In this document: positions 23,318 to 24,510 of the stretch, piece by piece | How the letters are laid out: every line of letters starts with the position of its first letter | How positions within the stretch are numbered: the stretch's first letter is position 1 | Source: a phage | DNA length: 64,000 bases | Sequence record: PZ379075.1 | Strand: one strand, 5' to 3' | Program-made: the position numbers and the translations under genes | Notes under the pieces: generated by a model | Database searches by the model: none | What the model saw: only the letters and a program-made list of their open reading frames with translations | Told to the model about the DNA's origin: nothing

Positions 23318-24510
23318 ATGACTACTCGTATCCGTGTTCTTCCTTATGGCCCTTCTGATTCAGTTCGTGAACTTACTTCTGCAATTAACACTAAGATTCA
23401 GGAACTTCGCTTAAATGCTAACGTAATGTCTCTGGTATCAGAAGGCTCTCGTTATCGTTCTCGAGTTGGTGATATTGTTGTCAACTATGGAAACCGTCGA
23501 TATAATGATGCTTTCTTTGGTGGTGCAACTGTATTGAACTCTGTGGTTGCCTTGAACCGAGCCGCTAACAAAATGACAGCATTTCAAACTTTGGAAGCTG
23601 CTGGGGTACATACTGTAGAATACACAAACAGTGCTGCTCAGGCTTCAGAGTGGACTCTGGATAGTGTTGTTTATGAACGTGCTATTCTGAATGGTCATTC
23701 TGGAGAAGGTATCACTGTTCGTCTTCAGGGTGAAGGTGTAGCTCCCGCCCCCTCTATACCCGTGGCATTCTAGGCCCACGTCGTGAATGGCGTGTTCATG
23801 TGTTTGAAGGTGTTATCACCTATGTTCAGAAAAAGATTCGCCGTAATGGTTATCGTGAAGATCCTTCCTATCGTGAAGACGTTCGAAACCATCATACTGG
23901 TTGGGTTTATTCCTCAAACTTCCAAGATGCGCCGCCTGATCAGGTTCTGATTCAAGCCCACAAAGCTGTATCTGCTCTGGGTTTGAACTTCGGTGCTGTT
24001 GACCTGATTAGCAAAGGTACTAACGCTTGGGTTCTGGAAGTTAATACAGCTCCGGGCCTGACTGGAACAACTCTGGAAACTTACACTCACAACATCGTTG
24101 AGTTTGTTAAGAGTTTCTCTGGTGTTGATCCTGACTACCGCGTTGCTTACGAACTGCCTGTTGAAGAAGTGGAAGAGTTTGCTGAATCAGCAGATGACGA
24201 GAACTTTGCATTGACAGCTGAACCAGTTGTTGAAGAGTCTTCGGAGCCTGTTCCTGAAACAATGCAAGTGGAAGAACAAGGGTTAGAGATCAACCCTGTA
24301 ACCCGTCGTACTTTACGTCGTGGTTATTACATCGCTAATATCAAGCACCCTGAGAATGGTTCAACTGTAGCAAGTAATGTGATCTTGTTCTTCTGTGGTC
24401 GTAACTTCTACCGCTCTGGGTGGAATGCACCGATTGGTGATCGCCAGCTTGGTCGTGTGTTGCAGATTAACAGTCTTACCCTGAATGATGGCACTGTTGT
24501 AAACTACTAA
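23318..24510 (+). CDS. ATP-grasp ligase (RimK/glutathione-synthetase-like), split by frame break at C5 run near 23748
   Basis: N-part KMTAFQTLEAAGVHT and GHSGEGITV; C-part REWRVHVFEG and LEVNTAPGL; two track ORFs (23318-23773, 23800-24510) join if one C is added. Confidence 0.6.

Follow-up and report, generated by a model that had tools for sequence, protein, structure and literature searches.

A one-base gap in a C tract divides the ATP-grasp ligase gene of a Kuravirus genome record and is very probably a homopolymer undercall

The ATP-grasp enzymes RimK and LysX/ArgX work on acidic C-terminal tails. In the Kuravirus phages an ATP-grasp gene belongs to a conserved module, together with a class-II glutamine amidotransferase, two COOH-NH2 ligases and a gamma-glutamyl-cyclotransferase-like protein, and this module was reportedly described by Iyer and colleagues (2009) as an amidoligase system by comparative genomics. 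No experimental work on the gene was found in the literature on phiEco32 or Kuravirus that deals with ATP-grasp or amidoligase. The closest described copies, phiEco32 gp80, ShigP1 XOF09000.1 and FS2B UAG58457.1 (PHROG 2599), are the same gene in the same position as the one studied here, which is therefore already known as the Kuravirus ATP-grasp ligase.

The DNA analysed (the window, 64,000 nucleotides of record PZ379075.1) comes from a phiEco32-like podophage of the genus Kuravirus, Gordonclarkvirinae. Its nearest relative overall is ShigP1 (99.6% over window 16769-31937), and for the gene at 23318-24510 there are 74 phage records with a match, ShigP1, EcM-vB1 and FS2B ranking first at 99.8-99.9%. 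The gene order is that of ShigP1 and phiEco32, namely COOH-NH2 ligases, glutamine amidotransferase, two small ORFs, ATP-grasp, GGACT-like and primase-helicase. The parts of the divided gene are the following.

23318..24510, plus strand: whole ATP-grasp ligase gene, orthologue of phiEco32 gp80 (ABY52881.1) and ShigP1 XOF09000.1
23318-23773, plus strand: apparent N-terminal ORF of 151 aa, of which residues 1-145 are genuine
23744-23752, plus strand: C3-G-C5 tract CCCGCCCCC, the presumed site of the missing base
23752..24510, plus strand: C-terminal part in the -1 frame, with L146-Y-T, R155-R-E-x-R-x-H and LEVN

The ATP-grasp gene is 1193 nt long in the window versus 1194 nt in intact relatives, and in megablast it was 99.9% identical to ShigP1 and FS2B, where the matching spans measure 1194 nt. 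The stretch 23741-23773 reads GCT CCC GCC CCC TCT ATA CCC GTG GCA TTC TAG and is translated as ...APAPSIPVAF*, the final 6 residues of the 151-aa ORF (SIPVAF) being out-of-frame read-through. In the -1 frame nothing interrupts the stretch between 23734 (just past the TGA at 23731-23733) and the stop at 24508-24510, which encodes ...LYTRGILGPRREWRVHVFEG...LEVNTAPGL. An N-terminal half that ends early and a C-terminal half lying in the -1 frame had already been proposed in the initial annotation, and translation and tblastn agree on this point: when the ShigP1 ORF was compared with the window, residues 1-145 matched in one frame and residues 145-397 in a second, with 100% identity for each. Since both parts match perfectly, the two ORFs are not a chance juxtaposition. 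The coordinates given earlier for the tract CCCGCCCCC, 23744-23752, were exactly right, and within it the C5 run occupies 23748-23752; the corresponding run is C6 in ShigP1 and phiEco32, the relatives where it was read. The claim that one inserted C joins both halves also held, as with one C added to C5 the reading frame is continuous over 397 aa, and the resulting protein has the sequence of the ATP-grasp proteins of ShigP1 and FS2B (100% identity), with 2 residues different from gp80 of phiEco32.

A 141-nt probe across the site was compared with the databases and the best 60 records were listed. One more base across the C tract is carried by 57 of the 60 listed relatives, which come from many laboratories, intact genes of the C3GC6 type being the rule in the alignment with orthologues that had been suggested as a check. 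The initial annotation had counted intact orthologues with C6 as evidence against an undercall; this was worded backwards, since such orthologues favour it. Among the 60 listed records the tract is short only in EcM-vB1, EcK-vB and EcP-vB, all from one Egyptian laboratory. In the same way, the gene spans 1194, 1197 or 1203 nt (all multiples of three) in 27 of 30 listed records, and 1193 nt in EcM-vB1, EcK-vB and EcP-vB. The short records do not agree in their spelling: EcM-vB1 and the window have CCCGCCCCC, while EcK-vB and EcP-vB have CCGCCCCCC, where the loss is in the neighbouring C3. A single deletion from a true C3GC6 (CCCGCCCCCC) would explain both spellings, whereas the change of a real C3GC5 allele to C2GC6 would require a loss and a gain, which is unlikely under deletion-biased errors. 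In exact pattern scans for either tract spelling, only phiEco32 (C3GC6) was found in IMG/VR, the short allele being absent there, and nothing was found in metagenome contigs. The four fragment proteins were looked up as exact matches in a collection of 15 billion proteins and none was found.

The gene is not the only one divided in this record. It had been noted that A5 and G4 breaks occur elsewhere, and these do exist, at 22632-22636 (amidotransferase) and at 38397-38400 (122-aa ORF). In the tblastn comparison, four ShigP1 ORFs and no others had their matches divided between two reading frames of the window, the identity being 98-100% before and after each break; those other than the ATP-grasp gene are listed below.

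A5 22632-22636, gene 21184-22874, plus strand: glutamine amidotransferase break, last ~80 codons shifted
G4 38397-38400, ORFs 38342-38434 and 38401-38709, plus strand: 122-aa ORF break, downstream of the DNA polymerase gene
C4 50280-50283 (G4 on the coding strand), minus strand: break of the 1473-aa phrog_14629 protein, in the virion/ejection gene block
50262-50822 (186 aa) and 46357-50253 (1298 aa), minus strand: the two pieces of the phrog_14629 protein, separated by a one-base loss

The A5 at 22632-22636 is A6 in 57 of 60 listed relatives and is short only in EcM-vB1, EcK-vB and EcP-vB; past it the amidotransferase tail continues in another frame with 100% identity to ShigP1. The other two breaks are private to the window. 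The G4 at 38397-38400 is G5 in ShigP1, with at least one more base in 40 of 40 listed relatives, and the site at 50280 measures 142 nt in 40 of 40 listed relatives versus 141 nt in the window; in the Egyptian records the run at this site is interrupted (TCTCCC) and the full length is kept. The phrog_14629 protein is conserved and encoded among the virion/ejection genes, and on these grounds it is probably essential.

The distribution of the small differences follows the length of the runs. Each of the four deletions that break genes affects a run which in the relatives has a length of 5 or more, and of the isolated differences of 1 nt between the window and ShigP1, 7 out of 7 are bases missing from the window. 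When the runs were sorted by their length in ShigP1, 0 of 1850 were shortened at length 3, 0 of 376 at length 4, 3 of 103 at length 5, 2 of 16 at length 6 and the single run (1/1) at length 7; the runs of 3-4 together gave 0 of 2226, and the rate climbs with run length. An intergenic run at 31428-31431 served as a control, being A5 in ShigP1, FS2B and others, and A4 in the window, phiEco32, MN03, MN05 and many more. It was considered as an error shared with the Egyptian records and rejected, as both lengths are present in records of many laboratories. Because both lengths are common, neutral length polymorphism exists in the genus; unlike at this harmless site, short alleles that break a gene are seen only in the window and in three noisy assemblies.

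Two further regions of the window were recorded in the comparison with ShigP1. Positions 1-80 contain clustered small indels and mismatches, including A6 versus A7 at 27-32, of a kind typical of a poorly covered assembly end. At 7098-7245, within a coding region, an 18-nt unit (TGGCATCAATGGTAAAGA) is repeated in tandem, with 8.2 copies and 95% matches; the tblastn matches are staggered there, and the copy number appears to differ from that of ShigP1.

Over 7.2 kb there are no true substitutions among EcM-vB1, EcK-vB and EcP-vB, yet several indels differ between them. Two-base and one-base losses private to EcM-vB1 split its GGACT gene, which is intact in EcP-vB; in EcK-vB the scaffold, the 3-kb virion protein and the ejection protein are each annotated in two pieces, although they are single genes in ShigP1. 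To judge from their sequences, the three assemblies are indel-noisy, and the three phages look like one phage sequenced three times by a noisy method. The records of the Egyptian phages (PV574017, PV591327, PV591328) have an annotation mostly on one strand and many split genes. The paper on EcM-vB1 (PMC11699686) contains no genome-sequencing methods.

A genuine frameshift, in which slippage removed one C in the phage lineage and left a young ATP-grasp pseudogene, possibly inherited with the A5 allele, has to be weighed against these data. The C3GC5 spelling has also been deposited for EcM-vB1 and the A5 allele occurs in 3 of 3 Egyptian records, so that 2 of the 4 breaks of the window (22632 A5, 23748 C5) are common to the Egyptian assemblies. 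Such shared errors would need a site-specific systematic error or a common pipeline, while common descent of real alleles would directly account for both breaks being shared. In addition, homopolymers are places where slippage is naturally frequent, and neutral polymorphism in their length occurs in the genus; moreover, the ATP-grasp gene is auxiliary by its PHROG category ('moron, auxiliary metabolic gene and host takeover'), and the loss of an accessory gene could be tolerable. The relatedness of the records is informative in two ways. In 21184-24510 the window has 0 substitutions and 2 one-base gaps versus ShigP1, and 4-6 substitutions versus the Egyptian records. In this segment of 3.3 kb the SNP pattern is compatible with shared ancestry, and a single-origin tree of the short alleles, in which each deletion arises once, is possible. 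Over 7.2 kb, by contrast, the window differs by 12 substitutions from ShigP1 and by 46-48 from the Egyptian records, whose closest relative is Ec3-ASingh (8 substitutions from EcM-vB1 over 7.2 kb), a phage with long alleles. As ShigP1 and Ec3-ASingh are both long, the short allele cuts across relatedness at the 7.2-kb scale.

The condition of the gene itself also speaks against a pseudogene. On either side of the break there are 0 amino-acid differences from intact orthologues, thus no decay, and of the degenerative changes by which a pseudogene is recognised none was found, with 0 nucleotide substitutions versus ShigP1 in 21184-24510. The window also has two further private breaks, one of them in a 1473-aa protein that is contiguous in 40 of 40 listed relatives; these mark the record as a whole as indel-prone. 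A genuine frameshift would also have to accommodate near-identical sister assemblies that put the deletion in different runs, and the absence of the short allele from IMG/VR and metagenome contigs. The initial annotation had kept a genuine pseudogene or frameshift as an alternative; we retain it as an unlikely one with a small share of the probability, mainly because of the single-origin tree that can be drawn within the 3.3-kb segment.

If the short alleles were real, they could be read as more than one chance loss. A sewage-borne Kuravirus lineage may have shut off the amidotransferase and the ATP-grasp ligase through contraction of the A6 and C3GC6 runs, which we regard as very unlikely; the independent C3 and C6 losses would then mean that the tracts act as contingency loci, selected on E. 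coli hosts with multidrug resistance. As contingency loci, the C3GC6 tract and the A6 run would be switches that repeatedly disable the amidoligase module. It fits with this that phages which are nearly identical have lost one base at two different places within 10 nt and that both shared breaks fall in one module (amidotransferase and ATP-grasp gene), but the same records show many homopolymer deletions outside the module, including in structural genes, the short alleles are in no other laboratory's record among the 60 listed, and a length of 5-6 is low for runs that should switch at a useful rate. A switch of this kind is therefore considered extremely improbable.

Homopolymer-length errors are a known artefact of flow-based or nanopore sequencing and of unpolished consensus. 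Such an undercall is to be recognised by an indel within a homopolymer that is longer in independent records, by several deletion-biased events in the same record and by the breakage of conserved, otherwise undamaged genes; here C5 stands against C6, the deletion-biased events are several and four ORFs are broken. The view taken in the initial annotation, that an undercall is to be favoured, is thus strengthened, with orthologues, the identity of the repaired protein, the four breaks and the discordant short records all in agreement, and from these assembled sequences we infer that the missing C is very probably a homopolymer undercall in the sequence record. The base would be absent from the record and not from the phage. 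The locus would be an ordinary intact Kuravirus ATP-grasp ligase gene, of which the record drops one C of C6 because the sequencing or consensus step undercalled the run. The correct reading would be GCT CCC GCC CCC CTC TAT, giving one protein of 397 aa in which an ATP-grasp carboxylate-amine ligase (residues ~1-285) is joined through a disordered, acidic linker (286-329) to a small beta domain at the C terminus.

The domain structure of the repaired protein was examined by profile and structure comparison. The protein matches phrog_2599 end to end (E 3e-187), and its last 82 residues also match phrog_20552. In Pfam it scores 16.8 bits with Dala_Dala_lig_C (cut-off 24) and 15.9 bits with RimK (cut-off 21); PF08443 is matched by 11 of 31 homologues at E <= 1e-3 (best E 9e-9), and the family profile finds RimK chains of the PDB at E 3e-6 to 8e-6 in the C-terminal subdomain only. 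An AlphaFold2 model (mean pLDDT 81) was built on the homologue P0001, which is 99% identical, and shows a confident domain over 1-285, followed by an acidic linker (286-329), which is disordered, and by a small beta domain. The top matches of this model in the PDB by Foldseek were Ddl, ArgX/LysX, RimK and PsnB (E 1e-13 to 1e-11, ~300 columns), the TM to the target being up to 0.70 for ArgX and 0.68 for RimK. Since one fold is matched over ~300 columns, the break at residue 145 would fall mid-fold, and on the model the gene is predicted to encode one three-subdomain ATP-grasp fold with the break inside it. The region 24130-24510 (residues ~286-397) was seen to encode a strongly acidic, predicted-disordered linker followed by a beta domain of ~70 aa (phrog_20552), in which G369 is invariant and W370 nearly invariant.

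The motifs are distributed over both pieces. The Gly-rich loop G126-H-S-G-x-G-I (NGHSGEGI), invariant in 31 homologues, is in the N-terminal piece, and L240-E-V-N (metal-binding, Mg), likewise invariant in the 31 homologues and aligned with the 'MEVN' segment of RimK, is in the C-terminal piece. The segment directly past the break is among the most conserved of the protein in the 31-homologue alignment, with L146, Y147, T148, R155, R156, E157, R159 and H161 invariant down to 35% identity, and the -1 frame of the window encodes it perfectly. The 151-aa product would lack half of the ATP-binding site, as judged by the alignment and the fold match, and neither piece would be expected to bind ATP alone. 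Among the best 120 homologues, drawn from genomes and metagenomes, 119 are single chains of 362-451 aa, the exception being P0120 with 244 aa.

A further reading is that the two ORFs are joined during expression, by -1 ribosomal frameshifting or transcriptional slippage on the C run, with a regulated ratio of truncated to full-length product. The frame needed is indeed -1, the overlap of the frames is short (23734-23773), and a P-site tRNA-Pro could slip back by one base and still pair perfectly (from CCC to CCC inside C5). There is, however, no X XXY YYZ heptamer: the zero frame reads GCC CCC UCU, where only the P-site codon re-pairs, since the A-site UCU is unable to do so in the -1 frame. 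No stimulatory hairpin or pseudoknot was found in 23744-23850 (107 nt), which folds with -24.9 kcal/mol (z = -0.62), 54 of 200 shuffles folding at least as well. Efficient transcriptional slippage is known on runs much longer than five C, and C5 is far below the lengths in question. Neither is the two-frame layout conserved, 57 of 60 listed relatives and 119 of 120 homologues having a single ORF or chain, and the truncated product would be without half of the ATP-binding site. Programmed frameshifting was rejected for want of heptamer, structure and conservation, and the probability left to recoding of any kind is practically negligible. Independent translation of the C-terminal half is also unlikely, because the only in-frame start before residue 160, the GTG at 23800, has no Shine-Dalgarno sequence and the product would be without the Gly-rich loop.

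The split is thus most likely not a real biological feature, to go by the sequence comparisons, and its significance is mainly one of quality control: one ATP-grasp ligase of 397 aa should be annotated and the three other genes repaired likewise. The GenBank records of EcM-vB1 and EcP-vB label the fragments 'metal ion binding protein (x2)', and gene-content comparisons that count fragments would give the false impression that the amidoligase module of Kuravirus has been lost. Were the frameshift true, the conserved uncharacterised module would be dispensable for plaque formation, a modest finding.

Three kinds of known systems can be set beside the locus. To errors of flow-based sequencing, nanopore sequencing or unpolished consensus it is similar in that there are one-base deletions only, in runs of at least 5 in the reference and with a frequency rising with length; sister assemblies show them again at the same long runs, and the ORFs they break are otherwise perfect. 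With E. coli dnaX and the G/GT tail-chaperone genes of phages it shares two overlapping frames, a -1 shift and a repetitive tract, but the window site is without a slippery heptamer, a stimulatory structure and a conserved split. As to the enzyme, RimK, LysX/ArgX and Ddl resemble the phage protein in the predicted fold, the Gly-rich loop and the E-x-N metal site, whereas their sequence identity to it is only 11-20%. By analogy with them, a carboxylate would be converted to an acyl phosphate with ATP and Mg and then joined to an amine, both chemistry and substrate of the ligase being putative. The identity with RimK is 16-20% in structural alignments, and ArgX and Ddl match equally well; the label 'ribosomal protein S6 glutaminyl transferase' for the family should thus be taken as putative. 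Beyond what is found in RimK, LysX/ArgX and Ddl, the phage protein carries an acidic linker and, at its C terminus, a beta domain (phrog_20552), and since RimK and LysX/ArgX use acidic tails, the role of this built-in acidic segment may merit a look. Compared with gp80 of phiEco32 and its counterparts in ShigP1 and FS2B, the copy in the window differs by a C6 run that is one C shorter, by which the gene is read as two ORFs.
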